Source of the DNA: Girardia tigrina
Taxonomy: Eukaryota
DNA length: 55,606 nt
Direction: 5' to 3'
Assembly: GCA_001938485.1 (NCBI GenBank)
Contig: MQRK01227476.1
Coordinates: forward strand, 1-55,606
Part shown: positions 3,501 through 55,606 of the stretch, in pieces
Position numbering within the stretch: the stretch's first letter is position 1
Layout: every line of letters begins with the position of its first letter
The notes under the pieces: generated by a model
Databases searched by the model: none
The model's input: the letters and a program-made list of their open reading frames with translations, nothing else
What the model was told of the DNA's origin: nothing
Translations under genes and position numbers: made by a program

Positions 3501-5300
3501 CTTAAAAACATAATCCCTGTAAAATTAGTTTTTACTATTTAAAACAAAAAACAGCATTTTTATTTAATATAATAATAATCTTTAATAATCTGGAAATGTT
3601 TAAAACCAAGATGTTTTATAGGAATAAACGCAAAAAATGTAGGAATCGATTATTAGATCAATGAAAGCGTGTGGATGAAGGCTAACATTTATCAAAGATT
3701 GCTTCGAAATTTTATGCTTCGGTGGGGAAAGAAAACCCAAAAATTTTATTGTCATTAGATAATGACTCCTCTCATTTTATTAAAACGGTGGTTTTGATGA
3801 TTATTAAAATAATCATTTTGCCCCCAAATAATGCTTCAAAAATTCAAACTCTAAATGCGGGTATTATATCAGCATTCAAAAGAAAATACAAAACATTTTT
3901 ATAAAAAGGTTCTATGAAAATTACAAGCTTTACAAAAATGTTACAAAATAAGTTAATTAGCACCTTTTGCGTGATTGAATATAAAAAAAGAATTTTAGAC
4001 TGATAATAAACCAATTAAATACGAGAGGATATATTTTTAATATCTACTCATACAAAAAACATGTTTGTTACACAATCAACTTTGTATAATTTCACATCTG
4101 TATTTTTCGGCTTTTTTATGAACAAAAAGTGTGAAATTATAGAGTGTTGACTGTATTTATTATTTAAGACATTTACATATCACTCTGTCATCTTATGACC
4201 ATTGTTTCATAAAGTCATTCGTGTCGCCCGGATTTTTAGAATTTTATTGATGCGGAGATTATTGCAAATTTGTTTCTTAATGACATGCAATTTTTAAAAA
4301 ATCAATACATTTGTTATTAGATGGGATATGCTCAGAAATTAACAAAAAGTGATTTAATTAAGAGGAAGAGATTTTAAGTCACTAATCTTATCAATGGAGT
4401 TTAATAAACCGACATCTATAGGTAGATTGTTACTTAAAGGATATATATTGTTACAATTTTAGATATTATGGAGAGAAAAAGAGAGGGGATCAATAGGTGG
4501 GGGAAGTCAAATTTTGAAAGTGGGCTCTTAGAGAACAGGGAAAAAATAGAATGGGGTCTATCTAAATTTATACAATATTAAAAATGAATAGTGTTAGGTT
4601 CGTGATTAATAATTATATTCATAAGAATGCAAAACTTTATTTCTATAACAATTAACAATTATTCAAACAATTTTTGTTGAGGAACTTTTTTTTGTTTGTG
4701 TTACAGTTTTTTTATTTGTACTTCTTCCATAATTTATGAATGATTTTTAACCATTCAATTAGTATATGTAAAAATTAATTTAATCTTACAAAATTACAGT
4801 ATATTATTTTTTAGTCAAATAGCTGGGTGCATCAGAAATTCGAAGTAACTGGTACCGTAAATAGTTCAGATTCCAGGAAATGTCAAATGTTTGGTAAATG
4901 GACTGAAGGTGTTTATGTTGGAGATAATGCACGTTGCATCTGGCGTCCAGGAGCCATACCAAAGGATCACAATAAATATTATGGATTCACGCAATTTGCC
5001 ATTGATTTAAATAACATTGACAATGAATTAGCAGCTACATTACCAAAAACTGATTCTAGATTCAGACCAGATCAAAGATATTTAGAAATGGGACTTATTA
5101 TGGAAGCTGAAACTGAAAAAACAAAAGTTGAAGAATTGCAACGGGTCACTCTATCAAAAATTGGTGGTGATGCCAATTGGAAGCCGTTGTGGTTCAAATT
5201 GCGCAGTGATTCTAAGTCAGACAAATATGAATTTACAAATGAGTACTGGTCAGCTAAAGAAAATCACTTTAAAAATATACAACTTCCAACACTCTGGTGA
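504..5300 (+). CDS. OSBPL3/6/7: Oxysterol-binding protein-related protein (ORP3/6/7-like), 3' part (lipid-binding ORD). Exons 504-573, 621-695, 736-873, 1912-2054, 2099-2237, 4815-5300; the 5' exons lie upstream of 504
   Basis: GT-AG splicing gives one continuous frame: [36 protein letters not shown]...[16 protein letters not shown]...[11 protein letters not shown] (EQVSHHPP ORD signature)...KNKFWGKS...[22 protein letters not shown]...[16 protein letters not shown]...LPTLW*. Introns are 47, 40, 1038, 44 and 2577 nt. AATAAA lies about 60 nt after the stop. Confidence 0.95.
3370..4153 (+). mobile_element. Internally deleted Tigger/pogo-type DNA transposon in the last ORP intron
   Basis: Inverted ends CAGTCAACACT..ATAATTTC (3370) and GAAATTATAGAGTGTTGACTG (to 4153, followed by TA). 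The motif TATAATTTCACA recurs subterminally. ORF 3722-3904 [12 protein letters not shown]...[24 protein letters not shown] matches pogo/Tigger DDE motifs (DNAPSH; LPPNTTS.LQPLD.GII..FK..Y). Confidence 0.8.
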
Positions 5301-10357: not shown

Positions 10358-10804
10358 TTTTCAACAATTTTGATTTTATTGATTTTATGTAATTTTATTG
10401 ATTTTATTAATTTTTATTGATTAAAATTATATCATTGGAAAAATGATTGCAAAAAGTTCGATAAATAAACTGTTTATCTTTTTATTTATTCTAAATTCAA
10501 TTATTTATATATAAATTATATTTATTTGGATAAAAAGATAAATAAAATCTTATTTTATCTTATTAATTAAAACAAAATTTTTTTTTACTACTTTTATTAT
10601 AATTTCCTCAAAATTCGTCGGGGCAATAAGATCTATGTCCCCATAAATGATAAAAAGAAAACGTACATAAGAAGGAATAGTACATACACTATATCAAGAT
10701 AGGAAAGAATGAAGAAATAATAATCATAAACCAAATACATATAAAATTAAATAAACCAATATATATAAAGATCACAAAAATCAAATATAAAAATCAAGAT
10801 GTTA

Positions 10805-11966
10805 TCAATTATCGTCCGTGAGATCGATGGGGAGCTCTGCGAAAGGATCTGATGGAATTTGATATTCAACTTTGATTCTTTGAGGCGAGAACCACGGCAG
10901 ATCCGTGCCTCGCGGGGCTTGACGAAACTCCACATCAATGTCAAATTTTTGAAGGGTAGGAGGTGTAGCGTGAGGACCACCCTTTTGGTTTCGATTCCAT
11001 AAACAATATCTGGTAAAATCGGTATCACTGTGAAAGTTAGGATTGCCTTTCACAGTCGGAACCGTTTGATTGTCACAGTGTGATGGAAAGGTAAGACGTT
11101 GCTGAGTACACGTAATATTCTGAAAGGGCTGTACCAAGGTGAACGATGAAGACTCAATATGCGAAATTGAGACTATCTTTGCGGCCTTTTCTGGGTGATG
11201 CCCTAATGTGCCCCGTGACCAACGTTTCGATTTAATGATGTTGACCTGTGGTTCCTCAAAAGTTGTTTCAACTATCCTGGCATGAGTCTCTCAAATACCG
11301 ATGTAGGTGCTCCAGATAAGACTTTCAGTCGATCAAGATAAGGCGGTGGAGGCATGACATCTTCATTAGAAGGTATGTAGACTGGGTGTGTTTCCTCATC
11401 TAAGGGGGTAATGTGTATTCACTTTCGCTAAAATTGTCATCTAATGAGGCGAAAAGATCTAGGTCATCGAGGTCATTGTCGTCGAGCTGTTCCATAGCCG
11501 ACTTAAAAGATGTCGTGGAATATGTATCCGATAGAACTTTCGACATTCTCCAATAGTTTGTTTCCAGTCACTCTTCCTCCATAGATGAAGGTGGACCATG
11601 TGTTTCAGGAGGCGAATTCTCAAAAAACTGTGCGGCGTTCGTAGGGGACAATGTATCTATCCATCTATTTTCATTTTTGCGATATATTCGCCACAGGGTA
11701 TCTGTGTCCTCATATGAAGGGTGGCCATGTAATTGAATGTTTTTTATGAAGGATATCCCAAGCCAAAGACTTTAGGCAGTAAAATTTCCCGTTATTCTTT
11801 TTCTTAATGCCATTAACTCAAAAAAAACAACGGCGGACAACTCCTCGCACTGTCGATCAATGATTCCTTTACGCTCTATGGACTGTGAAAACGACAAGTT
11901 ACGATAGCCGGTAGACGGCTGATTTTCAAGAAAAGTCTGTTTAAAGTCAGAATATTTGTTCTGCAT
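10805..11966 (-). pseudogene. Decayed ORF of about 385 codons, unknown family, at the 3' side of the Gypsy segment
   Basis: ORFs 11772-11966 and 10805-11137 join through an acidic/Pro-rich middle (EQLDDNDLDDLDLFASLDDNFSESE...PPPPYLDRL) if two stops and two frameshifts are allowed. GC is higher than in the flanks. Confidence 0.5.
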
Positions 11967-12339
11967 TTTGAAGAGGAATTCCTATGCTGTTTGGGATGCT
12001 GGTTTCATTTTAAATTAAAAGATATTAAATCATCGTGCACGTTTGTACGAATTAGAAGAAAGAAAAAAATAAACAATTTTATAATGAAATATAAAATTTC
12101 AAGGCTCGTACAGCCAAAAATGATTTTTATACCTGCGTCTGTTCTACGTACACTTCTGGCAGGTATTTCCCCAAGGAGGTACGATATAAGTTTAAAGCCG
12201 TCTGTTTCTTTTTGTGTTTCTTATATATGAATGTTATGTGCCATATTATTAAAAAACTAAGTAGAAATAATCCAACACTGATTATAAACGGCCATGTGTG
12301 TAACTGTAAATCTTTATTACCATTTAATTTATAAAGATT

Positions 12340-15300
12340 AGATTAAATTTCCGTTAAGGAGTCAGAATCAATAAATTTTTCATGTGTTTTAATGTGTGGA
12401 ACAGTAAATAGTGAACTATACTGAATAAATATATCCCATGAAAGACTATGTATAGTGAGATTTGACATTGAATTATCAATTAGTATCTTCTGCCCCACCC
12501 ATTTAATTTAAAATGATGCTATTAAAGTTATTTTTCTATATATAAGAACATACATATCTGTATGATTTCGATATCCGTCAAAATATATTGCTCTAAGTTC
12601 GTTATTACTTTGCCAATAACATTGCCCAAGACAAGTCTTAAAAGAATATTTAATGTTATGTGCTCCAACATTAACAAAGACGGTATGATGGACAATCTGT
12701 AATAAAATCTGTCGTTCTTGTAACGAAGTTCCTTGTTCAGCACCTACACCTCGCAGTAAGATAAGATGACCATTAAGGTTAATATAAAAGGAAATTTTAA
12801 ATATTTAAAATTATAAACTTGGTTTTTATCTGTCCTCACAACCTTTTCATCCATTTCAGTGTTTATCGGTAACTTTTTCCGACGCCAATTATGTAAATTT
12901 ATACCTTTTATAAAAATTTCTTCCTTTATTCATTGTTTGTTGAGCTGACCTATTTGATCTAAATCTTGATGTCTTACATATAAGACAGCTGCTTTTTTTC
13001 CTTCTAATGACGTGATCTCGATATTTTAAATTATTTCAAATACTGATTTTAGCAATTCTGAACCGTATCTTTTACCATATTCGGATGCAGTATCTCCACG
13101 TCGATCTTGAAGTGCCAAATTAGAGTATATAATAAGAGATGCTATGGCTGTATGGAACGGCGCTCGGTGCATTTTTGCTTCCATTAATGCAGATAATCCA
13201 CCTTTAGTATCTATCAACCCTGGGTACTCACATAATTGTACCTGTTTAAGTAATTTTGCAGCTTTGTGAAACTTATGTCGAGTTATTACAATCGTTAGTG
13301 GAGTAGCATTTCTTTTTGGATCTTTTACAGCAAAGAGATGTGGGTATTTTCTTACCTCATATTTGAAGAATTGGTCATTATAATTATTTTCTTTTATAAA
13401 ATGTAATCCAATATCTTCTTGTAACAGTAGAATGGTTGCATTCTCACTAATTTCTTTTTGCGATAATGGAGATCCATTATCATGATTAATTTTTAATGGT
13501 TTTATTTGAATTGGTTTTGAACGAGGTACTTGTGGATTGATTATTATGATATCTTCATAATCTGTAGATTCTGTATTCCTGTTCCTTGATAGCTGTGGAT
13601 TGATTTCTACCACGGCTATTTCCTCAGGTTGAGTTTGTGATCTGAGGTTATATCTTTTAATAGGCTCATTCTCAGCTTTTTTGCATCGATTGACGTGTAC
13701 GACTATTGGATCTGCATTTTTATTTTTTATGATAAATAAATTGGTGGGTGTCACTCTGACAACATCATATGGGCCTTTATATAGCATTGCTAACTTCTGG
13801 ATCAATCCTTTCTTTGACTCGGGAGCAAATATTCTCACCCTATCTCCGACTTTAAACGAATGTGGTTTTGTCGTTTTGTCGTATTGTTCTTTATATTTCT
13901 CTTGATTATACTTTATTTGTAGGCAAACTTGTTTATACACAATGTTTAATATTTCCAACATAAAGTGACAAAATCTGGGACTTCCATTAACTGTGATGAT
14001 TTTGGACTAAAATCCAAGTCAACAGGCATTATAATATCTCGTAAATATAAAAGATAACTTGGTTTGTAACTTGTTGCTTCTGTTTTTGTATTATTTATTA
14101 CAAATAACACATACAGAATGAAAATATCCAAATCACCTTGTTTTCGATTTGTTAAAAATGCCATTCTGTTTAAAAATGTACCGTTCATACGTTCAACTAA
14201 TCCATTTATTTCCGGATGGTAACCTGTAGTATTGAGCTTTAATATCTCAATGAGATGATTTATTTGGTTCATTATACTACTCATAAAATTTTGCCCTCTA
14301 TCGTTTAAAATCTTTTTTGGCGGTCCATATTTGAATATAATGCGTTCAACGAATATTGGTGCAAGTGTTTCAACTTTTTGATCTTGCATTGATAAAGCTT
14401 CTGTAAATTTTAAAAAATGATCCACGAAAACTAAAATATATTTATTGCGATTTACTTTTTCTGGAAATGGTCCAACGATATCCATTGCACATTATTCGAA
14501 TGGGGCTGCTGGTACTGGCATCGGTTTCAAGGGCACCTTCCTTTGGTTGGCAGTGTTAAGAGAACTCACACATTTGACAGAACATTTATTACACTCACAT
14601 TTCTTATCATCTTTATGATGATCAATAGTATTGCTTTCACTTAGATCCATCAATCAATTTTCAATATCTCCCATTATAATCTGAACTAACTTGAGAACAT
14701 TATTTTATATAAAAATATTTAATTTAAATTTTATTGGCTGAAATAAAATATTTTATAGTCATTTTTAAACATTAATTTGATTTTAATTATTTGAAAATTT
14801 ACAAAAATAAAATCAATAAACTTATTTAAAAGTTGCAATAATAAAAATTAAAAATTTGAATATTAAATCNNNNNNNNNNNNNNNNNNNNNNNNNNNNNNN
14901 NNNNNNNNNNNNNNNNNNNTTCACTTAGATCCATCAATCAATTTTCAATATCTCCCATTATAATCTGAACTAACTTGAGAACATTATTTTATATAAAAAT
15001 ATTTAATTTAAATTTTATTGGCTGAAATAAAATATTTTTATAGTCATTTTTAAACATTAATTTGATTTTAATTATTTGAAAATTTACAAAAATAAAATCA
15101 ATAAACTTATTTAAAAGTTGCAATAATAAAAATTAAAAATTTGAATATTAAATCTAAATTTAAAGAAATTAGTTTCAGATTATAAGAAATTAAATATTGA
15201 TAATCCATCTGGTTAGGAGAGGCACAATCCCAAATCAACATACAACATTTAAACATGCAAACACTACACAAAAACATCCAAATATCAAATATTCCTCACA

Positions 15301-15740
15301 GCCCGTATTTTTTCGAGTAGCGCAAATGGCACATAATTGGATCCATGACTCAATGTCAGATCTCATGCCTTCCCAATAATATTTTTCTCTGATTCTGTTA
15401 AATGTTTTTTGCAACGAAAGATGTCCTCCTAAAGCTCAATCATGATACTGCATCATTATATTTTCTTTTTGTGAATCAGGAGTAACAATTAATTCTTTAT
15501 CTCTATCCAGATATTTTAATATGTTATTCACAACTTTATATTATTTTATTTGTTGTTCCATTAATTTTTCTTTTAACTCTTTACGTTTGACATTGTTTTT
15601 TTGCCAATTTTGCAAATTCGTGTTTATGGTTACGTTTACAGCAGCTATTTCAAACATTTGACTTATTAGGTCTTTAAGTTTTATGGTCTCTGTAAAAGAG
15701 ATAATTGAAACGTATGCTACGATTAACTCTTTTATCAAAA
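12340..15740 (-). mobile_element. Ty3/Gypsy LTR retrotransposon pol remnant: integrase zinc finger, core and GPY motif, plus a long C-terminal extension
   Basis: About 15310-15500: MMQYHD*ALGGHLSLQKTFNRIREKYYWEGMRSDIESWIQLCAICATRK (HHCC). 14485-13946: MDIVGPFP...YILVFVDHFLKF...NDRGQNF...YHPEINGLVERMN (DDE core). 13961-13026: FKVGDRV...KLAMLYKGPYDVV...VHVNRCK. Frameshifts and stops present; an assembly gap interrupts it. Confidence 0.9.
14870..14919. other. Assembly gap flanked by a duplicated ~230-bp overlap
   Basis: N run; 14637-14869 is repeated almost exactly at 14920-15154. Confidence 0.95.
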
Positions 15741-16431
15741 TATTTATATAAATAGAAATAAAAAAAATAATTTTAATTAAAATATATTAAATAATAAAAA
15801 CATGCTTGAATCCAAGTCGTATATAAGATTTTTAATACCACAGTAATTGGCGAAGAAGTAACGTGCCAAATCGATGATTCTATTATTCCTTGACAACACA
15901 ACTTGGGTTATTTTTTGTCTCGTTTCTTCTAATATTTATTTTGGTAATTGAAAGATCATGGAAAGCTCATGGAAAGATCATATCCTTAAAAGTTCTATGT
16001 TTGATGATTACAATTTTAATATTCGGCAAATTGATAAGATATTGTCCGGCAATAGGATACGATTCGATGATTAGATGACTGAGTCTCGATTCGAGATTAG
16101 TGGATCTGATTCAGATTTTTTAAAGCTTTACAAAGATTTTATTTCTCGAAGCAAAATAACAATCACTCAAGAAGCTGTAGATTCTGTACTCAACTCTTTA
16201 TTTGTACTCAACTCATATGTTTATTGGTTGAATATGTTTATTTGTTGAATATTGTTTATTTTAATGTTTATTTTTTTCTGGTTATGTTATATTATAATTA
16301 AAAATTATGATTCAAATAGCCCATAGCAATATGGGATATTTGAATTTTAATTTAAATTAAATAATCATTAATTCAATGATTAATGATTTCATAATTATAA
16401 TTATCATTAGTTTTTTGTTAATAAATTAATT

Positions 16432-17131
16432 ATAAATTATTATCGATTCAACCGTATCACAACTTTCATTTTCTGCATGACAAAACGGATGTGTCATCAT
16501 TTTTCGAGAGACACTATCGAATGTGGCTTGGAACTTTCTTAACTCGGTTTTATATTGTCGTCTTACTACAAAATCTCCTGCGGTTTTTCTTCTCCAAAGA
16601 CTTTACCATTCACATTGACAATTTTCTTTTGGTGTGACCCAACCAACAACATTTACATCTGTATATATATTACTCCGGGTTTCGCATTCAGTATGATGTC
16701 TTGATAAGAACTATCTGGCTTTATTTTTCCCATTATGAATGCTTCTTCGCATTGTTTAGCTGTTAATTTTGCTGGTTCCGGAAAATATGAAGGTTTTATC
16801 GGCATTGAACCATGCGCACATCTGAACACTGTTTCTATATAGGTTACTTTGCATTCTTTTGCTTCTAAGAAAACAAAATCTGATTCCTGATATATATTCA
16901 TTACTTGTGAAAAAAAAGTGAATATTTTTGTCCGAATTTTGGTCTCGAACAGTCGTATGCTGTGATCCCTTCAGCTCCTTTTATTACTTGAAACATCATC
17001 ATCATCATCATTACTACTGGCCAATTTATTTTATCTTTTACACCTTTCCTTTGTTTTATAACTATTAAATTCTTTAAAAATTTGAGTATCTGATTCATCA
17101 TCTTCTCGAAGGGTATTTTTCCATCCACCAC
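16432..17131 (-). pseudogene. Env-like viral glycoprotein remnant (chuvirus glycoprotein-like N-terminal region) in the retrotransposon cluster
   Basis: Hydrophobic leader WPVVMMMMMMFQVIKGAEG, then ITAYDCSRPKFGQKYSL / MNIYQESDFVFLEAKECKVTYIETVFRCAHGS...LTAKQCEEAFIMGKI / DVNVVGWVTPKENCQCEW*...FVVRRQYKTELRKFQATFD...HPFCHAENESCDTVESIIIY. Two frameshifts and one stop. The cysteine pattern was recognised from memory. Confidence 0.6.
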
Positions 17132-17534
17132 GAGATTGCATCCATGAATTTATTCAATTTTCAATTAACGAAACTACCAATCCTATATATATCTAGACCC
17201 ATAAGATGAAATATAAATTTCTCATGTGTTCTTATAGCAATAAGAGCAGTAATTATTCTATTTTTATCAGGTGTCGTGGCCAATAAATTTCGTAATCCAT
17301 ATTCAAATTTCAACTCCATGATTTATATCTCGTTCATTTTCTTTAATTACGTCAATTTTAATACTTATACGTCAATTTTTAACATACATCAATTTTTTAT
17401 ACTTTGGGCTATTTTTATTATACTTTTTATTCCTTCCTGTTTTATCAACGCGAAATTGTAATTTTTACAACTTCCTTTAATAAACAATGGATAACATTTT
17501 CTATTTCAGTATTTTTTGTTTCATCCGGATCTCT

Positions 17535-18203
17535 TCATTCCGCTATTTGTCATTGTACCATGATGACTTGTGTGAGGAAGATGTTCCGTACAAACCCCAC
17601 ATGATTCTGGAATACAACTCACAGAAAGGTAGGGTTGATACTCTCGATCAAAATGTGCGGTGCTACTCATCAAAACGAAAAACAAATAGATGGCCATTTG
17701 CATTGTTTTGTAATTTATTGGATATTGGCGCGTACAATGCTTTCGTGTTCTATACAGTTGTATATCCAAATTTCGCAAATCGGGTTAGCCATCGTCGACG
17801 CATGTTTCTATTACAACTAGCGACCGAATTGGTGAAAGTTGATAATCCACCAATCTTGCCTAACCCAGGTTGACCAATTCGTCCCAATCAAAAGCGACGA
17901 TGCAATTTGTGCCCCCGACAAAATGATCGAAAGTCTAGCCAAAAATGTGACATTTGTTATCAAGCAGTTTGCTTTGAGCACACAATTCGTCGTTGTAATA
18001 AATGTCAATAGAACTTTTCATATTCTTGTCATTGTTTTATAAATTCATAAATTTGTATATTTTAATATTCTTAACTTACTAGTGTGATGTTAGAGACTAA
18101 AATTGTTGTTTTGATAATATTTACCGTAAAAATATAGATTCTGTACTGGTCCAGCAGACCCCATTTGGTACTCAACGTGATTTTTTTCTTGGTCGTTTAA
18201 TGG
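17535..18203 (+). mobile_element. piggyBac transposon 3' fragment with right terminus
   Basis: KPHMILEYNSQKGRVDTLDQ..CYSSKRKTNRWPFALFCNLLDIGAYNAF...RRRMFLLQLATEL. After a premature TGA (17871) the same frame continues into the Cys-rich domain RRCNLCPRQNDRKSSQKCDICYQAVCFEHTIRRCNKCQ* (to 18011). Ends GGTCGTTTAATGG followed by TTAA (18204-18207). Confidence 0.9.
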
Positions 18204-19416
18204 TTAATATAACTATATATCGATTGTCACTCTCCGTTGGGTATTTAATATAAACTCACAATTCTCCTTCCGGACAATTGAAAATCTATTCTTACACGGG
18301 GACATCTCGATGCTTCTCATGATCTGGATTACGACTATCGGCACTTGGATTAACGGAATATAACCCACTACGGATTAATTTCAGTACCTTTGGCTTTAGG
18401 ACAGGACGGAATCATTAAAGATGGGAAGGACTACGACGACGCTTAGTTAGTGGTTCTAGATTAACTCGCCAACGGCGAGATCACACGAATCTAAAAGAGA
18501 AACTATTTATATAAATATGTGATTAAAATATAACACAAATTCCGATAAAATATATTCAATGAATCAAAATAAAGCATATTAAGTAACACGAAATTTACAT
18601 TATTTCTAATCTTCTTGGACCGGAGGAAAGTTCGTCTACTGGTTTTCTGATCTCGATTAATTAGCTCGTGGGGTTTTTTCGTTAATTTTCTAATTCTTTC
18701 ACTTGCGATCAACAAAATTGCTTTACGCTATGTGGTACTATTCTTCTGAAAATTGTCCTAATGGTCTCGAAATATTGGTCCTAAGTGCTTTCTTCAAAAT
18801 GTTCTAATAATATTCTGCAATAAATACTATTCTAAGTGCTGTTGTTCTGTTCTAAAACTTGCAAAATATTTTCAAATGTTAATTAATGTTCTGGTTTTTA
18901 CTCGTCGGGCTACTGTATATATAACAACGTTTAATCTTGTTGGCCTGTCGGGTTGGTATGTTAATCTTGTTTGGCACGTTTTGATTAGCGGTCTACAAAT
19001 TTTGATGACTATCATTGACTGGTGCTACTCAGATCGAACATTCTAGTCTGAAAATTTCACATGACGTGGGCCACGTCACCGATTATTCATAGTGAATAAT
19101 CGTGTGACTAAATTTCTGAAACTCTGGGTTGTATAAAACAAAATAAAACACAAAAACATGTTTGGCAATCCTGAGATTCGTTTACTCTAAAAGTCAATGT
19201 ATAACATAAATTAACAGAAGGCACAATGCACAGTCAGTATATCAAAAATTATTTGTTTATGAAGACGAAAAACGTAAATTATAAATCATAGTCACTTCTA
19301 AAAAGATTGTTAAATAATGAATTTCTGTACGAATTTCTAAAAAGGAAACACAATGCGAGGGTTATAAATAATATAAGTTAGCATTAAAAGTGTAGAAGTC
19401 TTTACTTTTTCCATTT

Positions 19417-20129
19417 GTGGATGGAAATATCGAGAAAGTATCCCGACTGAAGAGAATCCAAAGAAGCGGGGACGAGCAAACACTAAGACTGGNGCTACCT
19501 CGTCTGAAAGAACACAGCTGTCCGATGGATGCCTGTCACAAACAATATGCGGAAGTGAAGGAGTTAAACAAGCATCTCAGAAGAGATCACGAAGGAGCAG
19601 AGCCAATCCCGCGGAAGAAGAAAGAGAAGAAAGCCCAGCCACATCAGAAGAAAGGAAAATATCAATGTCAACACTGTCCGAGGGAATACAAGGCCACTGG
19701 TTTCCTAAGGATTCATATTCAGAAGAATGATCAAGAAGCGCCAACATCCAACACCCAGAGAGAAGAAAACTTGGAAGAAGAGAACCAGGAAGAGCCGACA
19801 TCAAACCAATCCAATCCTCAGTTGCCGGACGCAACTGTGAGTATGCCGAGGATACAGCCGAACGACGATGCCGAAGAGAAGCTCCTACAATACCGACTGC
19901 CAGCCGATTACAAGACTGCAAGAGGACAATTTAATTGCCCATTTCGCAGTTGTTACGCGTCCACCGTAACAGCCAACGGCATGTACGGCCATGGTACCAA
20001 GTTCCATGGTTGGTCGTGCGTTACTGGCAAGCCGACTGCTCAGAGGCGGAAGGCCACTAACCCGGTAGGAGTTTAGGTGGACCCTCTAAATAGCCTTAGG
20101 CTCAATACCAATACAGAAATGGGAAGCCC
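19417..20129 (+). mobile_element. 5'-truncated retroposed insertion (probable non-LTR element 3' end) encoding three C2H2-type zinc fingers
   Basis: Exact 13-bp direct repeat ACTTTTTCCATTT at 19404-19416 and 20130-20142. GC-rich open frame to 20076 with CPMDAC..HLRRDH, CQHC..HIQKND (degenerate) and CPFRSC..HGTKFH. Confidence 0.75.
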
Positions 20130-20269
20130 ACTTTTTCCATTTCATTAATAAAAACATGACCAATCATTTATCATTTACACGATGGAAAAAAATCCCGCTT
20201 CAATTCAGTTTTCCCTCATTTCCAGCTGTTTTACAAAATTTCCCGCATGGTCTGGCATCACTGAACACA

Positions 20270-32700: not shown

Positions 32701-35700
32701 ATTTATTTACATGGATATTTCCAAAGAATTATCGATCTATGTTAATTCGAATCAACCGGTATATTATTAATTTTTTTGGCATTATAAAATCAAATATTTG
32801 TGTAATCTATTCCAAGTATTATTGTTTAATTTAAACTCAAAGCTTCCTGAAAAATTATTGGTTAACAAATTAGAGTCAAATATCAAAGTAAATCTTTCTT
32901 CGACATCTAAAAATCTTCAAAAAATATGCGAAATGATTGAGTTTTGACTGTTATAACTAATTACAATTATTATTGCAAGTTTCATACATACAACGGGCGG
33001 TTTTTAATTGCATGAGAGAAAAAAGACATGAAAGAAGAGAATAATTTATTTCAATAGGAAGTTGTACCTCCCTTAGCACGCAAAAGTTCTTTCACACGGC
33101 GACACATATAGTAGCAACACGTATAGCAGAGGAGGAAAACCATATTTTCTGACATGTTTCCCACAATGCCTCCTTGGGAACATTTCGTTTTCGAATCTCA
33201 CGTTTCAACAGGTTCCAGACCGTCTCTATCAGATTCATGTCTGGGCTGTTTCTAGGTCAAGACAACTCAGTTACTCCACTGTCCTCCAAGTGTGATCGCG
33301 TTTTTCTTGAGGTGTAGCATGGAGCGTGGTACCATACCAGTTCTCTGTCTGTGTGAGAAGACAGGTGTGAATGACTTGACAGTATTGTTCGGATGCCATT
33401 GACCATTCACCCTATGAAGACGTCCAGGTCCTCTGCTGGAGATACATCCCCAGATCATCATTCGAGGAGGATATGTTTGCGGACTTTACACCCGGCCTTG
33501 ATGAATCCGCTCTAGCAGTTCTTCGAACCAATTGGCTCTGCGGCGACATGCTTCCATCCTTGTCTCATCAATGAAGACAAGCTCCAATGAAACCAGATCA
33601 AGAGAAGATGTCCCATGTAATGAGAGTAATAGCATGTCATTACTGTACTCATTACAGTATTTATCTTGCTCCATTTGTCCGCTGTACAGTGCGCATGTTG
33701 CTTTGAAGCTGTTGTGCCATCATTCTATTTGTGAACAATGGAACCCCATTTTAGGCGAGTCGCCCTGCATACTGCAAATGCCCTCGAATTCGATGTGATC
33801 ATACATTAGATGCATGCTCGCCAATTGTTTCTTTTATTTCCACTGATGTCATTTTCGATCAATCTTGCTGAGTATGATGATGCGATTTGAAAGTCGCTCT
33901 CCGATGAGCTTCTTTCTACCACACCGGCTTTTCTTCTGATTTGCAATGCTCCAAGTCTGTTGATGTTGTTTTATTAGCTGGAACACTGCAGATCGGGAGC
34001 AGCACACATTTGCAGCAATTTTCACTTGTGTTTTGGATGTATGGGTAGTCAAAGTCACTATCTGCGTACGCTGTACAGCAGTCAAGCCCATGATAATGGC
34101 AATTCTTGTAATTCTTAGAAAAAACTAAAAGTAGAATTATAATTTCATTTTGGCACCCTTTACAATTGAATCGTTTGATTAAAGTATGCTGCAAGTAGAC
34201 ACAAGTATTTTTAAATGTTATAATATATGGATTTTCAGGATTATGCAATTAAAACCGCCACCATTGTAATTGATTCAGGTATAAATATGGAGAAATTAAT
34301 TCGTATTGTAAATTATTTCACTAATTAATAACTGGGAAACCTAAAAAATCAACAGATAAAATTGTAATGTTCGAATTATCAGAACTAAGAAGTTGATTCA
34401 AGTAATTTGTAAATTATATTGGTACTTTGTGATGGCGGAAGAAACAGAAGACATTTATGCGGTGAATGTCATTCCTAGCATGAAATATATGGCAATTACT
34501 TGTCATTACACTTAGATCAAGAAGAGGATCAAGAAGAATATCCAATGTTTTAATATTTGCTCAACTATATCTAGAAGTATTTGTATGAATTAATAAAAAT
34601 GAATCGAAATTTGTATTATCTGAAAAAGTATGAATAAATATTGGGTTGTTCGGAAAGTCATTTCGTTTTTTTTATTACTTGTTTTAAATGTATTTTTTTA
34701 AATTAATAATCATTAATAATCATTGACTTTGTTATTTATTTTAGCAGTTGGTAATCAATAAAATGTCTGATATTGAATTTGCATGTACTATTTGTTATAA
34801 TTCATATCTCCGAATTTATATCTCCGAGTGCTTAACGAAGCGTTTGCTTCATTATCTGAATGAGAAATACCCAGCTGGATACTTAATCTTCTGGCCATAT
34901 CTTGCTTCTTGTCACTACGCCAAAGCAAGTCTGAAGTGCTTAGAGGAAAACAAAATTCCATTTGTCAAAAAAGATTTGAATCCATTTGGAAAATTTTGGA
35001 ATAATTAAAAACAATTATTGTGAAGGACTCATGTGAAAAGCTCATTGTTTAAATTTTTGAATAAATAATTTTTATAAATAATATTTGAAATAAGTAAATA
35101 TTTAAAATCAAAAGTTGTCTAAACATTTATAATGTAAAAATATATCGTAATTAATTTTAAAAATTTATTTTCGAGAATAATCGAATTTTATTTGAAGAGT
35201 AAAAAAAACTTAAAATGAAATTAATTGGGAAATAATGAATTTTTAAATAATTGATTAAAAAAATATATAGAAATACAAGGATAAAATAGGTTGTAATAAT
35301 TTTAAAAATTATTCTAAATAGTTTTGTAAAAAAAATTTAATTAAGACTTTTATCATTAACGTATCATAATAATAATAAAATTTGTAAATCACTGTGAAAT
35401 ACTATAAATTATTTTTTGGTATTTAAATTGTATGGTATTTAAAATAATTGTAGGTAAAAATGCTTTTAAATATTAATAATAAAATTTTTAAATATTGAAA
35501 AAAAATAAAACGTTAAAATCTTTATTAATTAGAAATGTTTCCCAAAAAAAAGAAATAACATTAAACTAATTCTAAAATAATAAAAAATCATTAAGGTTAA
35601 TTTAGTAAAAATATGACTACTACAAAATTTTGTTGGTTTTAATTTAAAAATAAGGATGTAATTTTTTAAATAAATAGAATTAAAAATTTTCAATTTTAAA

Positions 35701-38700
35701 ATCACTTATCAGTTATTTATATTTATAATTTCATATTTTTATATAAGAATCTGGTCATAAAGAAAACGATAGAAAAGTTCCTCTACAAAAATTCTTTATT
35801 AAAAGCAACAATTTTTATTACAACAAAAATTGTTAACTAAAAATTGTTTGAATAATTGTTATTTGTGTATTTAATAAATTTTTGGTGTTATGAATTCTAA
35901 TATTGATCAAGAACCCAACATGTCGACCATCGCCAGCAGCTCCGAACAATTAATTTCGAGGCTTATACCAGACAAATTTAGACGACAAGATAATGTGGAA
36001 ACAACATTTAAATAATTTTAGATTACTAGAAATTGTTGCAAAATACGTTTAAAAATTATTCAAAATAGAACAGTTATTATTTAGATTTTTATAATGTATT
36101 TTGAAGATTTTTATAAAATAATAAAATCTTAATATATAAATTAACGTAATAAAAAAATAAATTCAATTTTAATTAACGTTTTAATAAATAAGTTATCAGT
36201 ATTATAATCCAATATTTTTATGTATGAATAATCTGGTCAAAAATAAGAAAACAAAAGAAAAGTTCCTCAAGAAAAATTGTTTAAATAATTGTTATTGTTA
36301 TAGAAATATAATTTGGTGTTAATGAATTATAATTTTGATCAAGAACCCAACATGGCTACCATCGCCAGTAGCTCCGAACAACTAATTTCGAGGCTCATAC
36401 CAGACAAATTTAGGCGACAAGATAATGTTGAAACATTCATTTCGGCTTGCGCTTGATACTTCAAAGTGGCCAAAGTATCGGAAAGTATGCAAGAGATTTT
36501 GGTAATTGGGTTAATGTCACACGACCTCGTACCAATATACGAAAGTGTGGGTCCCGAGGTGAAGGGATATGAAGCCCAGTTACGACAAGCTTTTCAGACG
36601 AAAAGCACGTTAATGGATGATTTAATAGAAGCGGTAAACTTCGAGAGATCGGGAGAATCAGTGGAGGAATTCTTCGTTAAGGCAAAAAAGTTGGCGGCAA
36701 AATTGATGAAGCATGAGTGGACAGAAACGGAGGTAGAGAAATGCCTTCTGATTCACGCGTCAAAAGATAGTGACGTGAAGAAAGAAATCAAATTTAGAGA
36801 AGTGAAAGAATTAGCAAAGGTGAAGAACGTCATTAGGAAAGTAGATGAAGTCCGGAGAATGGAAAATCCGGTGCACGCAATACGATCAACATATAGAGAT
36901 GTGGTCAAAAATGGCAACAAAAAATATAATATAATAAATATAAAATATTGATCAAGAACCCAACATTTATATTTGATTTTTGACCTATCAAAGATGGAAA
37001 GCAAGAATCAGCATTTACGGCATGTATTACTTTTTTACTTACGAAAAGGTAAAAATGCTGTACAAGCAAGAAGAAAATTATGCGAAGTGTATGGAGAAGA
37101 TGTGTTTACAGAACGCCAATGCCAAAGCTGGTTTAAATAATTTAGATCCGGAAATTTTGATGTTGAAGATTCTTCACGTTCCGGAAGGCCCATTGAGGCC
37201 GACGAAGACATAATAAAGGCATTAATTGATTCAAACCGGCGAATAACAACTCGCGAAATTGTCCAGACATTACATTTATCTAATTCGACCGTCCATGATC
37301 ATTTGAAGCGCCTAGGTTTTACATCAAAACTCGGCACATGGATTTCTCATAATCTTACCGAACGAAATTTATGCTGTCGTTTAGACATCTGCGATATGCT
37401 TCTCAAATGCCAAGAAAATGAAAAAAATGAAGCGCATCGTCACTGGAGATGAGAAATGGGTAGTCTACAATAATGTAAAACGCAAGAGATCTTGGAGTAA
37501 AAAAGATCAACCTGCTCAAAGCACTTCGAAAGCTGACATTCATCAAAAAAAAGTGATGCTATCTATTTGGTGGGATTTCAAAGGAATCGTATTTTATGGG
37601 CTTCTTCCAGACAAAACTACGATCAATTCGGACGTCTACAGTCATCAGCTGGACAAATTAAATGAATCTCTTAAACACAAAAGGCCAGAATTGATCAATA
37701 GTAAAGGTGTAGTGTTTCACCAAGATAATGCCAGACCTCATACAAGTTTGTTAACTCGCCAAAAGCTTTTACAGCTTGAATGGAACATCATGCCTCACCC
37801 ACCATATTCTCCAGACCTCGCACCTTCTGATTATCATTTGTTCCGGTCTCTACAAAATTATTTAGTCGGCAACACTTTTGGATCAAATGAAGATGTTAGA
37901 AATCACCTGGAAAAGTTTTTTAACAGCAAAGAACAAATATTTTATGAACGTGGAATCATGTCACTGCCAGGAAGATGGAAGAAGGTATTGAACAACAATG
38001 GTCAATGTGTATTTCAACACAATATTTATCCGACATAAAAATTTGTCTTTTACTTTTACACAAAAAAAACGAAATGACTTTCCGAACAACCTAATAGTAG
38101 AGAATAAATTTATGTCCGAATAATCGTATAAATTCCTTTCAAAATTTTTGAGATTTTAATTAATTTGTATAAAAAATTATTTGAGGATTAAACGATTATT
38201 TTGTTTATTTTGCGTGTATTAACATAAAAAGTAAAATCCGATCGATTTAACAACACAATGATAATTCCCAAAAAAACAGATAAAACTGAACTATGATGAC
38301 ACCTACAAATACCGATCAAATCTTACCGACACAGAATTATCGGTCATGGAATATATTTGATTCCATGATTTCGAGATAAGATTGGTCCTGGGAGCATTCT
38401 GGGAACACGAGAGAGTCCACCTGCAGCTATTAGGAGTGCCAATGACGTTGATAGGCCCGTGAGTGAGAGATGCCATTCGGTGGCCGCATTGGAGCACTCT
38501 GAGAGCCCTTGAGATCGCCTGGTGAAGTTGATTGCCACATTTGTTCATTTGGCCTAATCCAGTATCAGCATCAATTGATATTTCCCTATCTTCTGGCAGT
38601 TTGCATGCCATTGTAGACCGAATATCACGGTTAATGTGACAACACTGTATTGATGTTATATCCGCTGAAGCATTCCGATAATCAGAAATGGAGGAAGAAA

Positions 38701-41700
38701 TAATCAACTCTGACTGATATCACAATAATAACTCACATTGCTGGAAATCATCGAGTGCATTCTCACAGAAATTCAAGAGGACAACAAAATGTTTCCAGAG
38801 AAACGGTGCAAATTTCAAAACTCGACAGAAACTGTCTTGTAATTCATCACTGAGACTACCGAATTGATTGAACAACAGAGATAGAGGTTGCAGTAGATCT
38901 ACATTAGTCAGACTCGGTAACAACGTGTCGACAGACGGTTTCACAAACAGAGGAATTCTGGACATTATACATTATACTATCAAGCATTATGATACAGTTA
39001 AACAGAGATTAATACCATCTTTAACTAATAATATTTTAAAAATAAAGTCTCATGTGGATGTTTAATTCAAGATACCTATATTGCACTGTTCTTGAACTTT
39101 GTAGATGCTGCGTTACCATTTGAATATTATTGCACTATTATTTTCAGGTTTTAAATAATTCAAACATTTACTTTCTTTTGCATATTTGTTTGGGAATAGT
39201 TTAGACATTTTGAAATCATGCTGACATAAGTATTGATCGCATGTTTATTATATTAGGTTGTTTAAAAAATAATGTCGTTTTTTTAATGGTCCTGATTTTT
39301 GATCATGTTTGGAAATAAATCTTTATCATTTATTTATGGTTTATACATAATTTTAAAGCTTATGAAAACTCTATATTTCTATGATACTTTGTTTAAATAT
39401 TAACTTTAAAATAACGTGTTTATTTCAATAGTTGTCAATATGCAAAAAGCGCAATTACGAGCAAGTTTTTTATATGAATTCAAACTTGACCACAAAGCAT
39501 CGGAGGCCGTCCGTAATATCAACGGTGCATTTGGCGATGGAACCACAAACGAACGTCTGTTAAAACCTTGATTCAAAAAATTACAAGGAGTTGAGACCAT
39601 CAAAGATGATGATGGCCGTGGACGGAAACCTGCTATTGAAAATGAAAATTTGAAGGCTCTAGTAGAAGCAAATCCACACACAACAGTTCGAGAGCTTGCG
39701 GAGGAACTAGGTGTCACGATAGGAACAATTTCAAACCAACTGCGTGACATTGGGAAGTCGCAAAAACTGGATAAATAGATTCCATACGAATTAAATGACA
39801 GTCAAAAAATGCGTCGTTTGAGGCATCGTATTCTCTTCTTCTGCGGAACAAGAACGATCCGTTTCTGGACCGAATTGTAACGTGTGATTAAAAGTGGATT
39901 GTCTTCGACAATCTGAGACGTTAATCCCAATGGTTGGACCACGATCAAGCTCCGCAACCCTTTCCGAGGCCGAAATTGTACCAATAAAAGATGATGGTGA
40001 CTGTTTGGTGGTCTGCAGCTGGTGTTATTCATCATAGATTCCTAAATCCAGGAGAAACAATTACGGCAGAGAGATACTGTCAGGAAATTGTCAAAGTGAA
40101 CCAGAAACTCCAACAACAATAACCAACATTAGTCAATAGGAAGGGGCCTATTCTTCCCTACCACAACGCTCGGCCATACATCGCACGTCTGACAATGCAA
40201 CTGTTAAACGAACTTGGCTACGAAACTTTGAGTCATCCACCATACTCACCTGACCTCTCGCCTATTGATTATCACTTTTTCAAACATCTTGACATTTTCC
40301 TCCAGGAGAAAAACTTCAAAAATCAAGGGGATGCTAAAACTGCCTTTAACGATTTCATCGCCTCCATAAAGCCAGACTTTTATGCAACCAGAATAAATAA
40401 ACTTGTGCAACGTTGGCAAAAGTGTATTGATGCTAACGGTTTCTATGTCGATTAATAAAGTTGATTCTACGCTGAGATATTTGTCCTTAAAGATTAAGGT
40501 TAAAAAACGACATTATTTTTAAGCAACCTAATATAAACAATAGTTTAAGAAAATTAATTTATAATAGAAGTTATAAAATTATGATTAAATAAGAAAGCAG
40601 ATTGGGATTCATATCATGTACATTTATTAACTCGTTTTACACTGGTCACGGGGGCAAAATTATCGACTAGTTAAGAGTAGCATTTTTTAATGTTTCGGTG
40701 CTGTTCAACTGTGAGATCTGTCTGTTTCGAGTAGCTTGGTGTCGATTGCTGATTCGGATAACATAAACCAATGGGAAAATTAGGGAAGAGTGCGCTGCCC
40801 CGGGTCCAGAAAATCAACATTTTTTAATATCTCATGAAAAAGATAATCAATAAACTATAGAAACCGTTTTTGGTTAGTTGTTTTTAAAATGACTGAATGG
40901 GTATATTGTGAATGGCGAGTAAGTAATGTTTTAGTGTTCTTCTATAATGATATATTATTGTTATTGCGTACTTGTTGTTGTCTTCTTGTTGTTTTTTATG
41001 CTTCGAAGATTTAACAGATTCTGGTGGCGGTTGTTGAGTCTCATCAATGAACGGTTCAGAAAAGATCACTGAGAAAAATCGAATCGGAAATAAAATTGAT
41101 AAATACCAAGAAAACGTGTCACCTTGGTTTGAAGATTCTTTATTACGCGGTTTCTGGTCTCTATCAAGTTGATTCCGACCGAACACAGTGTTATGTCCGA
41201 CAATTGCTCTGATAATCTGATCATCTTCGTCTTGTGAATGGATCTCTTCATTCGATTCGAAATCTGTCTCTTCATCGAGATCACTGACTCCGAATCCTCT
41301 AGGATTACCGTCTTCATCAAGCTCGCTGTTGACTGAGTTTTCGTTATAATTGTCTTCATCACTACTAGTGGAATACTGATCATCCCATAATAAGTTATCA
41401 CTTTCCGAAAAATTTAATTCTCCTGGTTACACAAAAATGTTAAATAATAATGTTTTTATCGATTTTGTATAACCTTCACTAAGATCTTCATCATTGTTCG
41501 TGTCATCTGTATCCTGTCGAGCTCTCACTAATCTCTTTGAAAGGGCCATTCGTTTTTTCTTCGGTTTTGTTATTGATTGTTGTGGTTGTGGTTGAGAAAC
41601 AATCGTATTAATCGTGTCGATTTCTTCATTAATCGTTTCCCTTTCTTCACAGCATTCGTACCGTCGAAACATAAGAGAAATTTCAATATTAGCCCCTCGT

Positions 41701-44700
41701 AACTCATCGCGAATTCTCACAAGACATTGATTGAAAACGTGACCGTATAAATTTAACACAAACGAATGTGCTAAATCAAATTTCTGATAAATCGATTTCA
41801 ACTGATCATCGTCAGAATCTTGTGTGAAGTTCTGTCTAATGATTTCCAAACACGAATTGGCGATGAATAACACTTGAGTAACGATTTTCACATTTAAACT
41901 AGATGGTCGAACACCATTGTCGGGAGACGAGGCACTCGACACGAGTTTCCGATCGAATCCGAGTACAAAACTCAGAATATTCAGGACGTCATCACACATA
42001 CCAGCCAACTGTTTCATGTCGTAGCTAAACACATAAAGATTAAATAGAAAAAAAACTATGGGAATTTGGTATTACTGATTCATTTCGTTTGGTGTCGTAA
42101 ATAGATGCCACACATTCAAATATTTAATGATGCACGATTTCACTCGGATTATTCTTAACAATTTTATTATTTTCTTAACCAGTACACTCAATTACTGACT
42201 TCAAACCACTCTTAGAAACATTCGAGCCTGACTTCTTCATCAAGGACTCTCGATCAAGAACGCTTCTCAATCGTTTTACGTTTCTCTCGAATAAAATTAA
42301 TAAATTTTCTTTTGCTTGACAAAAGGAATTTGAACACAACTGAGCTTTCAAATAATAATAGGCTGCATTGAGTCCGTAATAACTCAATGTGTCGAGTGTA
42401 GCTAATTGGTTATAAGCATGTCCAAGTGACGGATTCAGAGACAATACAAAGTTATAGTAGCGAGTGGATAACACTCGCGCATTTGTACATTTGATATCAT
42501 TTTCATAACGATCTGGCATTCATCAATAAATAGATTTAAGCACAATATCATTAAAAATAAATAATAAAAATAATGACTTAATATTGATTAATGAAATCAA
42601 AAGAATTACTAAATAGACATTATTAATAAATAAAAATAACTCAAATAATTGGATCAAAATCCCTTTTTTTGCAAAGGTTGAGAAACAGTATGGAACTGTG
42701 ACCGAAATAATAAATAAATAATAACTGTTTCTCTTATAGTTTTGTAAAGTTGTTATAAAAGTACAACAAAAACCAGAGAGAAATCGAATATGAGAAAGAA
42801 CTAAAGGAAAAAAGAGAAAAGGATGAAATCAAACAATGTTCTCAGGAGTTGATGAAAGATTAAACGAATACGGTTTGAAAAGGATGGAGTGCTCGAAAAA
42901 AACTTTGCAGAGAGGAAACTAAAATGGGAAATAGAATAAAACGAAAGAGAAACGACCCTCGTAAGGGCCACAATTACCCATTGTTTAAAAAATACGAAAC
43001 ATAATTTTTTTTAAAAAAAATATAAAATGAGATTAAAATAAAAGTTGTTTTTTATTTTTTCAAATATTTATTGATTTTTAAAAATTGAGACAAAAAAATA
43101 AATAACATTAAAATCGAAAAGTACAATCTATATACAAGAGATAAAATAAGACGATGAGTTTCAAGATAAAGATCCCATCATCAGGTCAATCTCCACATGT
43201 ATTTTTATCTCAAAACGTCTTCTCGCATCGTCTTATGTTAATCCCTCAAAAAAATATTATATTAAAACGTTATTGAAATTAATCTAAAATTGTAATAATC
43301 TTATTTGAAATTATGAAAACTAATAAGAAAGAATTTCCAATAAGTTTTGATATAATTGATATATTTTAATTATAATACTTTGCAATAGTAATAGTTATTG
43401 TTGTCATTCAAATAATCAATTAATTTATTAAAGTTTTGTAATCTTTTTTCTTTCTAATAAAAAATTCCTAAGCCAATCAAAGTTTATTAATTTCGACGGT
43501 TTAACCGTCATCGTCAGAACAAATGATTTTTCAAACGAAATTTACTTATATAGTGCAGTTAGTGATTATGCAAGCAATACATAATCAGTACATCATTTAA
43601 AAAATTGAGTGCACATTAAAAAATTATTGGGAGAGAATGACATGTGAAGCGTTATATATAAGATCTTTGAATCCTAAAATTAACGTTCAAACTGCATTCT
43701 CTACAACTTTGTTCGGAGTTTTTAAATGATGTACTGATTACCTATTGATTACATAATCATTAACTGCACTATATAAGTAAATTTCGTTTGAAAAATCATT
43801 TGTTCTGACGATGACGGTTAAACTGTCGAAATTAATAAACTTTGATTGGCTTAAGAATTTTTTATTTGATAATTTGCCAATTTTATTTCAATTTTTCTTT
43901 CTATTCATTTTTTTATGAATTTCGTGACTTTTTTGCATTATTATTATTAAAATAAATTTAAACCTTACATTTTAACAGCGACAATTTTCAGTATATAATA
44001 ATTAAATAATTATAAAATTCCAAATTTCCAAAAAAAACATTTTAGAAATGATTAAAAATTATTTTGTTTAATAATGTGGGATTACGTAGTTTTAAAGTAA
44101 GAATAAAAAGAAAAATAATTTATATATTTTCTCGGAGGCTTCTGTATTGTTTATTCGTGTCCAACTTCTGATTCTTCTAGTCATTTCATCACCCATTTCG
44201 GCGTCGCGTAGACAGTGGATAGATTAGGTTGTCCTAAAAGTTCCCGGTCAATAATGAAAATACATTTTTTTCAAATTTCTTTTTGGCATTATTTATTTGA
44301 TATTGATATATATATATATCGATTTATTTAGAGCATTATATGGACGAGATTACAAATCTTGAAATCCGTGTGTTGCTCCGCCACTAATGGAAGAAAGGGT
44401 TGACAACACGAGATACTGCCAAGGCAATTTGCAAAGTTGAAGGTACACAAACGGTCGGAAAAAGTAGGGCAATTGATCAGTTAAAGCGTTTCAATAAAGA
44501 CAACTTTGACTTGAATGACAGTCCTTATTCTGGACGACCAACAAAATTGGATAACGATGACTTGCAAGCAGAGTTGAACATGAAGCCTTCGTCAAGCACT
44601 CACGATTTGGCATTTAAGCTTGCAGTTGGCAAGTCAACCATAAATTGGCATTTGAAGCAGCTCAAGAAAGTGCGTCAAGATCCACACGAACTCACTAAGC

Positions 44701-53092: not shown

Positions 53093-53828
53093 TCCTGTGA
53101 CAAGCCCGAAAATAAAAAGCAGAAAATACAGACTCTAAGTGAACTTGAATCTGTACCATATACTGAATTCAGTGACCATGCAGAAATTACTTATCCTGTG
53201 AATGATCGAATAGAGGAGTCAACTACACAAGAAAACACAAATGAAAATATGTACGATATTGGTGCACATTACAGTGTTTCTTCTATTCCATTTGATTTAA
53301 AATTAAAGATTCTCCTAAACACAACAGTTCCTAAAAAAGAATACAATTTTAAAAAAGATTCAACTGGGAAAAGGGCTTTTCGATTTCCTTGGATAGAATA
53401 ATATTTACCATGGTTGTGTTATTCTAATAATTAAAAAAGGTGCATTTTGCAAATATTGTGTCCTTTTCCACCAAAGATTCATCGATGTCTTTAAGAGGCA
53501 TTTATAAAATCAGCATTTATAAACTATAAAAATTTTCATGAAGCTGCTAGGTATCATCTGACGTCGCAATGGCACAAAGAAGCAACTATTGATGTGCAAA
53601 ATTTTATTACCGTTAACAAATATCCCGAGAAAGATATAATTAGTCAAATCGATTCTGCAGCACAGGTGACTATAAAATCGAATCGAATAAAACTAGGTTC
53701 AATTTTGTCTTCGATTATATTTTGTGCTACTCATGACTTACACTTGCGGGGAAAACATAGCAATGAAGGGAATTTAAAGGATTTATTTCGATTTCGAATT
53801 GAAGCTGGTGATGTTACATTACAAAAAC

Positions 53829-55489: not shown

Positions 55490-55606
55490 TGTTACGACCA
55501 CGATTTGAAGGAAACCCTCCTTCACAACCCCCATCCTGTACGTCCGAGATCATTGGAGAAAGTTTTGAGGACAGTCTAACTCGACTGTCCTCGGTTAATT
55601 TTAAAT
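55490..55606. mobile_element. Probable start of an LTR inserted into the outer hAT, cut by the window edge
   Basis: hAT-like coding stops abruptly at TGTTACGACC (TG start typical of LTRs) and GC content rises. The other end is not visible. Confidence 0.4.

Follow-up and report, generated by a model that had tools for sequence, protein, structure and literature searches.

The window, by which we mean the whole 55,606-nucleotide contig MQRK01227476.1 from the Girardia tigrina assembly, very probably contains the decayed remains, with internal deletions, of one copy of a multicopy Ty3/Gypsy LTR retroelement whose polyprotein includes a predicted class III env in frame. The copy in the window is dead: it is broken and truncated. 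It can be followed as one deleted and interrupted element from 17549 to 10468 (-), where it terminates within the 3' LTR. Its parts, in the order of the element, are as follows (L006 is a natural copy from the host genome; other L numbers are also fetched loci).

17125..17549 (-): what is left of the polyprotein's Bcl-2-like domain, from tblastn to residues 347-502 of L006
16967..17124 (-): linker (acidic, then basic) and hydrophobic leader ending in GAEG, from the sequence and the hydropathy of L006
16430..16966 (-): N-terminal ~195 residues of the predicted class III env ectodomain, from tblastn and the PF24664 match of the family's frame
15691..16429 (no strand): unrelated filler, without a blastn match to any fetched locus
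15301..15690 (-): end of the RNase H region and zinc finger of the integrase, from the same family (PF17921, E = 3e-16)
14558..15300 (no strand): another repeat, inserted along with an assembly gap, that splits the integrase; it matches L134 and L047
13029..14557 (-): integrase core, C-terminal domain, and polyprotein tail, frameshifted (rve, E = 8e-7; Integrase_p58_C, E = 1e-3)
10614..13028 (-): 3' accessory region, with the decayed ORF of a small membrane protein and another ORF downstream of it, from comparison of copies
10468..10613 (-): start of the 3' LTR, truncated, which aligns with LTR starts (TGTTG)

The copy in the window

The sequence-only reading of this region had listed a leader and a series of glycoprotein-like motifs that were spread over frameshifts. 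Six-frame translation of 15500-18500 places all of these motifs on the minus strand, in three frames. The leader, WPVVMMMMMMFQVIKGAEG, is at 17023-16967 (-), and ITAYDC begins at 16966; ECKV..F.C and QCEEA..G.I are in a second frame; and VVGW..NC..EW, VVRRQY..L, and C...E.C.T....IIY are in a third. There is also an in-frame stop within env at 16605-16603, which that reading did not mention. Compared to the natural copies, the window's env has a deletion of ~49 nt near 16910 and a loss of 1 nt near 16660, and another 2 nt are missing near 17062, upstream of the leader. The leader had been described as being in frame with upstream coding sequence. This is true of the natural copies; in the window, it holds only up to ~17062, where the 2 nt are missing, and is partly accidental.

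These motifs are not chance resemblances: when we used tblastn with the frame of L006 as the query, residues 486-732 matched the window's env pieces at 72-83% identity (E = 5e-121). None of the four env pieces from the window reached PF24664 by itself in a Pfam scan (at E <= 1), so the identification of env rests on the other genomic copies. The window's env stops at 16430, which leaves only the first ~195 residues of an ectodomain of ~550 residues. The filler that follows replaces ~3.6 kb that was lost: the rest of env, the protease, the reverse transcriptase (RT), and most of RNase H.

The Bcl-2-like remnant contains several indels, as well as RIITAL and WMQSRGGW, which we take to be BH1-like and BH2-like motifs. 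The copy does not continue upstream of 17549 and so has neither gag nor the 5' LTR. On the other side of the filler, 15301..15690 has 81-87% nucleotide identity to the env-bearing copies L023, L027, L035, and L038, and the family segments that flank the inserted repeat are contiguous in L027, L035, and L038. The integrase segment has 82-90% nucleotide identity to copies of the family. The accessory region is missing ~1.1 kb at ~11825, which in other copies carries a DEDD exonuclease-like part. The truncated LTR start aligns with the 3' ends of L059 and L063 and with the 5' end of L043. Because the closest fetched relatives of the window copy are just 89-95% identical, per segment, it is not a very recent insertion.

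A multicopy family with a long reading frame

The family is a multicopy LTR retroelement. Searching the host genome with 16400-17350 gave 809 candidates, and the 40 that were scored yielded 45 matches. Apart from the window itself and one piece of 37 nt, these matches have 75-86% nucleotide identity.

As pieced together from overlapping natural copies, the family has a single frame of ~3,000 codons, without a stop between domains, in the order gag, spacer, Bcl-2-like domain, leader, env, protease, RT, RNase H, and integrase. L006 has a frame of 1,232 codons with the full Monjiviricetes fusion domain (PF24664, E = 9e-85). The frame of L005 (856 codons) extends from a CCHC zinc knuckle to env; the frames of L021 and L034 run from env to the protease, and those of L023 and L030 from env to RT; and L114 has 1,677 codons of env-PR-RT-RH-IN. 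Among the natural copies examined, we did not see a single gap-free copy of the whole frame: L110 is stop-free for 3,084 codons, but 974 of these are N (assembly gaps). The suggestion that env is fused into a polyprotein, which had been made from the window alone, is thus confirmed by continuous frames in overlapping natural copies (L005, L023, and L114).

Gag has a weak match to PNMA-like capsids and one zinc knuckle, and a second hydrophobic segment lies between env and the protease. The LTR is ~775 bp (TGTTG...CAACA, with the two ends seen in different copies), and in all three loci scanned, the primer site is complementary to the host's tRNA-Lys(CTT) genes. Both the TG...CA termini of the LTR and the presence of a tRNA primer site are as in other Ty3/Gypsy elements. 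Summed over overlapping copies, the element's length is ~14-15 kb. The spacer has dN/dS of 0.10-0.15, which indicates purifying selection. Contigs that resemble the family cover all 30 bins in four of four runs, of which one is a metatranscriptome and the other three are only presumed to be RNA. As there is no silent control among them, we make no claim that the family is transcribed.

Linkage of env to a Gypsy-type pol

The sequence-only reading had proposed that env belongs with the Gypsy pol pieces nearby. The window's env, 15301-15690, and integrase stretches co-occur in 4 of 15 fetched copies, where their order and strand are the same; in the remaining 11, the series is interrupted by deletions, assembly gaps, the end of the contig, or the 10-kb limit on fetched sequence. 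The distance from env to the pol stretch is ~3.6 kb in L023, L027, and L035 and ~3.4 kb in L038, whereas in the window an unrelated stretch of 0.74 kb separates them. The neighboring pol pieces in the window belong to the same family as env.

The family's pol is Ty3/Gypsy, not BEL/Pao. In a search of PDB, the closest solved relative of its RT is the RT of Ty3 (E = 8e-80). The RT has the motif MPFGLTNAPATFQR...YIDD and is accompanied by RT_RNaseH, H2C2, and rve domains; the order PR-RT-RH-IN, the Gypsy-type RT, and the H2C2 integrase are all those of Ty3/Gypsy elements, the Metaviridae. Pfam scans of the family's frames did not find the BEL markers PF05380 (Peptidase_A17) or DUF5641. In a tree of RT sequences, the family groups with other env-bearing polyproteins and apart from BEL RTs of the host genome (100/100), although this tree is small, with just two BEL rows and no named Gypsy references from outside.

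Env is a predicted class III fusogen

We modeled the env of L006 using AlphaFold 2 with 116 sequences (mean pLDDT = 84); a single-sequence model had a pLDDT of 33 and was left unused. Foldseek matched the model to herpesvirus gB (E = 1e-14, TM ~0.4), and the top fold matches in BFVD were glycoproteins (G) from chu-, xinmo-, and qin-like viruses, with E values down to 5e-42. By sequence, the matches to gB in PDB are weak (E = 0.13 for env alone and 0.012 as a profile). Together with the PF24664 match of the natural copy, the fold matches support the earlier claim of homology to chuvirus-type glycoproteins. In the monomer model, a class III (gB-like) ectodomain lies between the leader and the transmembrane segment, and we predict that env is a class III fusogen.

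A sequence search with env gave matches to 1,143 representatives at E <= 0.001. The best full-length relatives are long proteins, with 27-42% identity, followed by stand-alone proteins of ~650 residues, with 21-31% identity; the one match that is named as a chuvirus G has 26% identity. Of 15 long relatives that we scanned, 12 have protease and/or RT in the env frame, and none has BEL domains. A tree of the ectodomain (119 rows) places 19 of the 20 top-tier relatives together in a group with SH 98, and the named chuvirus G (P0028) and a DUF5641/BEL-linked G (P0057) fall outside it. This group was picked by score, and 97 rows of the tree are unlabelled. The twentieth top-tier row (P0024) is a long-branch partial sequence. 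Because env is closest to the envs of other polyproteins (mostly 27-42% identity) and not to chuvirus G, it belongs to an old lineage of retroelement envs and is not a fresh capture.

Pairwise dN/dS of the env ectodomain versus L006 is 0.05-0.14, including for the two longer pieces in the window, so env was under purifying selection while the family spread. The leader ends in GAEG in 11 of the 12 listed frames from the host genome and in GANG in the twelfth. In L006, it has a moderate hydropathy peak (1.6), and it is rich in methionine, so it could also be a start. We predict that the leader is an internal signal peptide and infer that it is cleaved.

The ectodomain of the family has only 15 asparagines. 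It has no N-glycosylation sequons in seven of nine natural frames (some of which are partial) and one in each of the other two. Among 96 stand-alone relatives of env, the median is 3 sequons and none has zero (this is a comparison of counts, with no statistical test). Some of the related env polyproteins (P0002, P0004, P0006, P0008, P0009, and P0015) appear to have at least two aspartic protease domains. Also, an env-PR-RT-IN polyprotein (P0011) is filed under a metagenome-assembled genome of Flavobacteriaceae, which is likely animal DNA that was binned into a bacterial genome.

A Bcl-2-like domain before env

The ~140 residues that precede the leader, which the sequence-only reading had passed over, are Bcl-2-like. 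In a single copy, the similarity to Bcl-2 is weak (E = 0.39 in PDB and 0.24 in Pfam), and the NWGR motif of BH1 is degenerate in the family. Profiles of the region before the leader match Bcl-xL at E = 2e-5 and 3e-4; the rows of these profiles were chosen partly by motif. In a plain scan of the host genome with PF00452, the env-linked loci L139 and L140 come directly beneath the 13 matches that are over the cut-off. The profile built from the element finds six host-like Bcl-2 frames (E = 2e-6 to 6e-3, versus 0.03 for the best of 20 shuffles). Of three Bcl-2-like test stretches, two had no Bcl-2 match in a Pfam scan, and the third (L113) had E = 0.051. Versus L006, the domain has dN/dS of 0.07-0.13, which indicates purifying selection.

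The host genome also contains giant elements, with frames of up to 4,142 codons and matches to dUTPase, that share the junction between the Bcl-2-like domain and env. The Bcl-2-like domain is absent from many of the relatives outside the host genome.

The giant, Burro-like frames are on contigs C249044 (L106/L107), C246636 (L108/L109), C242717 (L112/L113), and C191956 (L122), and carry Ty3 capsid, env, protease, RT, RH, and IN, with weak matches to dUTPase in two of them. A Bcl-2-like domain precedes env in L106/L107, L112/L113, L122, and L125, and was undetected in L108. Host-like Bcl-2 domains in L126-L136 are in single open frames; some of these score identically on several contigs, and four have a frame of 186 codons. 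They may represent genes without introns, mobile cargo, or duplication in the assembly.

The 3' accessory region

Between the integrase and the 3' LTR, there is ~3.5 kb of accessory sequence. We found weak matches to a DEDD exonuclease (RNase_T, E = 4e-7 to 7e-3) in L037, L030, L048, and L052. RNase_T was not found in three further copies of the accessory ORF, and five pieces of the accessory ORF had no Pfam match. DEDD ORFs are reported from LTR elements of rotifers (PMC5408684).

A small membrane-protein ORF, without a match to any family, precedes the exonuclease-like ORF. Accessory ORFs of at least 600 codons were recorded at L037:776-2203, L030:824-1771, L048:7109-7903, and L067:3675-5507, and some of these have the RNase_T match. 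We had suspected by eye that there were ankyrin repeats after the integrase, but the tail gave no matches in PDB at E = 10, and we dropped this idea.

Relationship to known elements

In-frame env in Gypsy elements of flatworms has already been published, so our family is not a novelty in that respect. The sequence-only reading had raised the capture of a chuvirus-type fusogen by a Gypsy lineage as potentially new, and this too is in print (PMC13524379, PMC6431247). PMC13524379 describes 114 arthropod gypsy elements that bear a chuvirus-like glycoprotein. It also reports GAG-ENV-POL Gypsy elements with a gB-type env in Platyhelminthes, Nematoda, and Bryozoa, which are not one clade (Chary and Hayashi). 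In the planarian element Burro, env is in frame between BCL2 and the protease and has matches to mononegavirus fusion proteins (PMC6431247, Arkhipova and Yushenova).

Our family resembles the GAG-ENV-POL errantiviruses of flatworms in PMC13524379: it has a Ty3/Gypsy pol, env between gag and pol, a predicted class III fold, and a similar coding span. The nearest of these elements is Smed_errantivirus_3, whose env row for domains I-II shares ~116 of 246 residues (~47%) with L006, by a hand count. The main text of PMC13524379 does not mention Bcl-2, an exonuclease, a polyprotein, the term in-frame, or Burro, although its figures may show the continuity of the ORFs. Primer tRNAs are not listed there for the six Smed elements, while our family has a tRNA-Lys site. 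In our family, we saw the Bcl-2-like domain, the single frame, the tRNA-Lys primer site, and the 3' accessory region.

As in Burro/GYPSM1 of dugesiid planarians (PMC6431247), env is in frame between a BCL2-like domain, which directly precedes it, and the protease. However, the polyprotein is ~3,000 amino acids, versus 4,873-5,140 for Burro, and the element is ~14-15 kb instead of over 30 kb. We saw one zinc knuckle, and Pfam scans of the family's frames found no MATH, BIR, SUMO-like, ankyrin, or dUTPase domains. The family's RT is also separate from the RT of the giant elements in the host genome. Because it lacks the giant size and the extra domains, we consider the family to be Burro-like and do not class it as Burro.

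What is new is in the details: a compact family that keeps the junction of Bcl-2 and env, priming by tRNA-Lys, and an exonuclease-like ORF at the 3' end. We found no description of a compact Bcl-2-env family as such in the literature that we searched; subscription papers and Repbase were outside the scope of this search, and we do not claim that the family is absent from print.

The non-canonical endogenous retroviruses of nematodes reportedly have a continuous gag-env-pro-pol frame. They are like our family in having env before pol after the capture of an RNA-virus-type glycoprotein, but they are from another host phylum (Sacco et al. 2022). The BEL/Pao elements of mosquitoes that bear a chuvirus glycoprotein have the same glycoprotein family, PF24664 (Dezordi et al., PMC7642597). 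Our family differs from them in that its pol is Gypsy, with neither a BEL-type RT nor Peptidase_A17/DUF5641, and in that env is inside the polyprotein, before the protease.

Our finding adds one family, by way of one dead copy, to a published class, and as such it matters little. Still, the family is a compact, high-copy, and selection-constrained case, and its processing could be observed in the host's tissue. Also, the junction of Bcl-2 and env is kept in an element that is much smaller than Burro, which points to a core part and not baggage. According to the introduction of PMC13524379, it is an open question whether the invertebrate retroelements with gB-type envs are infectious.

How the polyprotein might work

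The element likely made enveloped particles. From the anatomy of the polyprotein, along with the established biology of other polyproteins, we propose a scheme for its processing, which we consider somewhat more probable than its alternatives taken together. While the polyprotein is being synthesized, the internal leader would thread env into the lumen of the ER, and signal peptidase would cleave the leader after GAEG. Env would be held in the membrane by the second hydrophobic segment, which would also return protease-RT-IN to the cytosol, where the element's protease would release it. The cut leader would stay behind as a tail anchor on the Gag-Bcl-2 half. The tail anchor of cellular Bcl-2 proteins sits where the leader would remain. 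In this way, capsid, env, and enzymes would be made 1:1:1 on one membrane. The predicted gB-like trimer would mediate fusion between particle and target cell, and the Bcl-2-like domain would curb apoptosis of the host cell.

More speculatively, the signal peptide of env may double as the tail anchor of Gag and of a captured Bcl-2 domain, so that one polyprotein builds an enveloped particle that buds at the ER, with capsid, fusogen, and enzymes fixed at 1:1:1, and also protects the cell that produces it from apoptosis. We regard this as possible but somewhat doubtful. If true, this would be a flavivirus-like plan of assembly in a retroelement, kept from the compact to the giant members of the family.

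Alternative explanations

In the same element, env might instead come chiefly from a transcript of its own, either spliced or subgenomic, with a methionine of the leader as its start, in the style of classical errantiviruses, and the fusion to gag would be incidental. The leader does have several in-frame Met codons, and retroelements usually need far more Gag than Pol. On the other hand, natural copies lack stops between gag and env or between env and pol, and the spacer is under purifying selection (dN/dS of 0.10-0.15). None of nine joints in the RNA contigs over L006 recurred in a second run, which is a weak test because these contigs derive from many copies. Overall, we think that expression of env from its own RNA is unlikely, and we prefer the single polyprotein.

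As to the origin of env, the PF24664 match and the chu-like virus G proteins among the top BFVD matches might also suggest that this lineage captured a chuvirus glycoprotein recently and independently, or that a chuvirus inserted by itself beside an unrelated Gypsy pol. This seems very improbable, as the window's env and pol match the same copies, 19 of 20 top-tier relatives of env are grouped (SH 98) apart from P0028 and P0057, and the list of ORFs from the window shows neither an N nor an L gene. Purifying selection on env would be expected of a fusogen gene that had been domesticated by the host, but with 4,311 candidate places in the genome (68 scored), LTRs, a primer site, and a window copy that is broken and truncated, we give this idea hardly any credence. 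Finally, env could be linked to a BEL/Pao element, as in the Anakin case from mosquitoes. BEL/Pao elements are abundant in the host genome (150 scored matches), yet none of 13 fetched BEL stretches gave a match to the env profile, and the family has RT_RNaseH, H2C2, and rve but not PF05380 or DUF5641, so there is next to no chance that this is correct.

Other features of the window

A fragment of a piggyBac-like transposase (17484-17870, +; PF13843, E = 6e-10) abuts the point where the retroelement is cut off. A C2H2 zinc-finger ORF at 19396-20131 (+) is also present in L060, at 91% identity, so it is part of another repeat. Two pieces of the window are from host genes: an exon of an oxysterol-binding protein (4815-5297, +; E = 5e-35) and an Est1/SMG5-7-like gene (41427-46668, -; E = 2e-16 for 42178-42519), which is interrupted by mariner-like elements. 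By eye, 34639-38096, 44218-45433, and 51183-55605 contain elements with terminal inverted repeats and pieces of transposases, which we take to be mariner-like and hAT-like, respectively.
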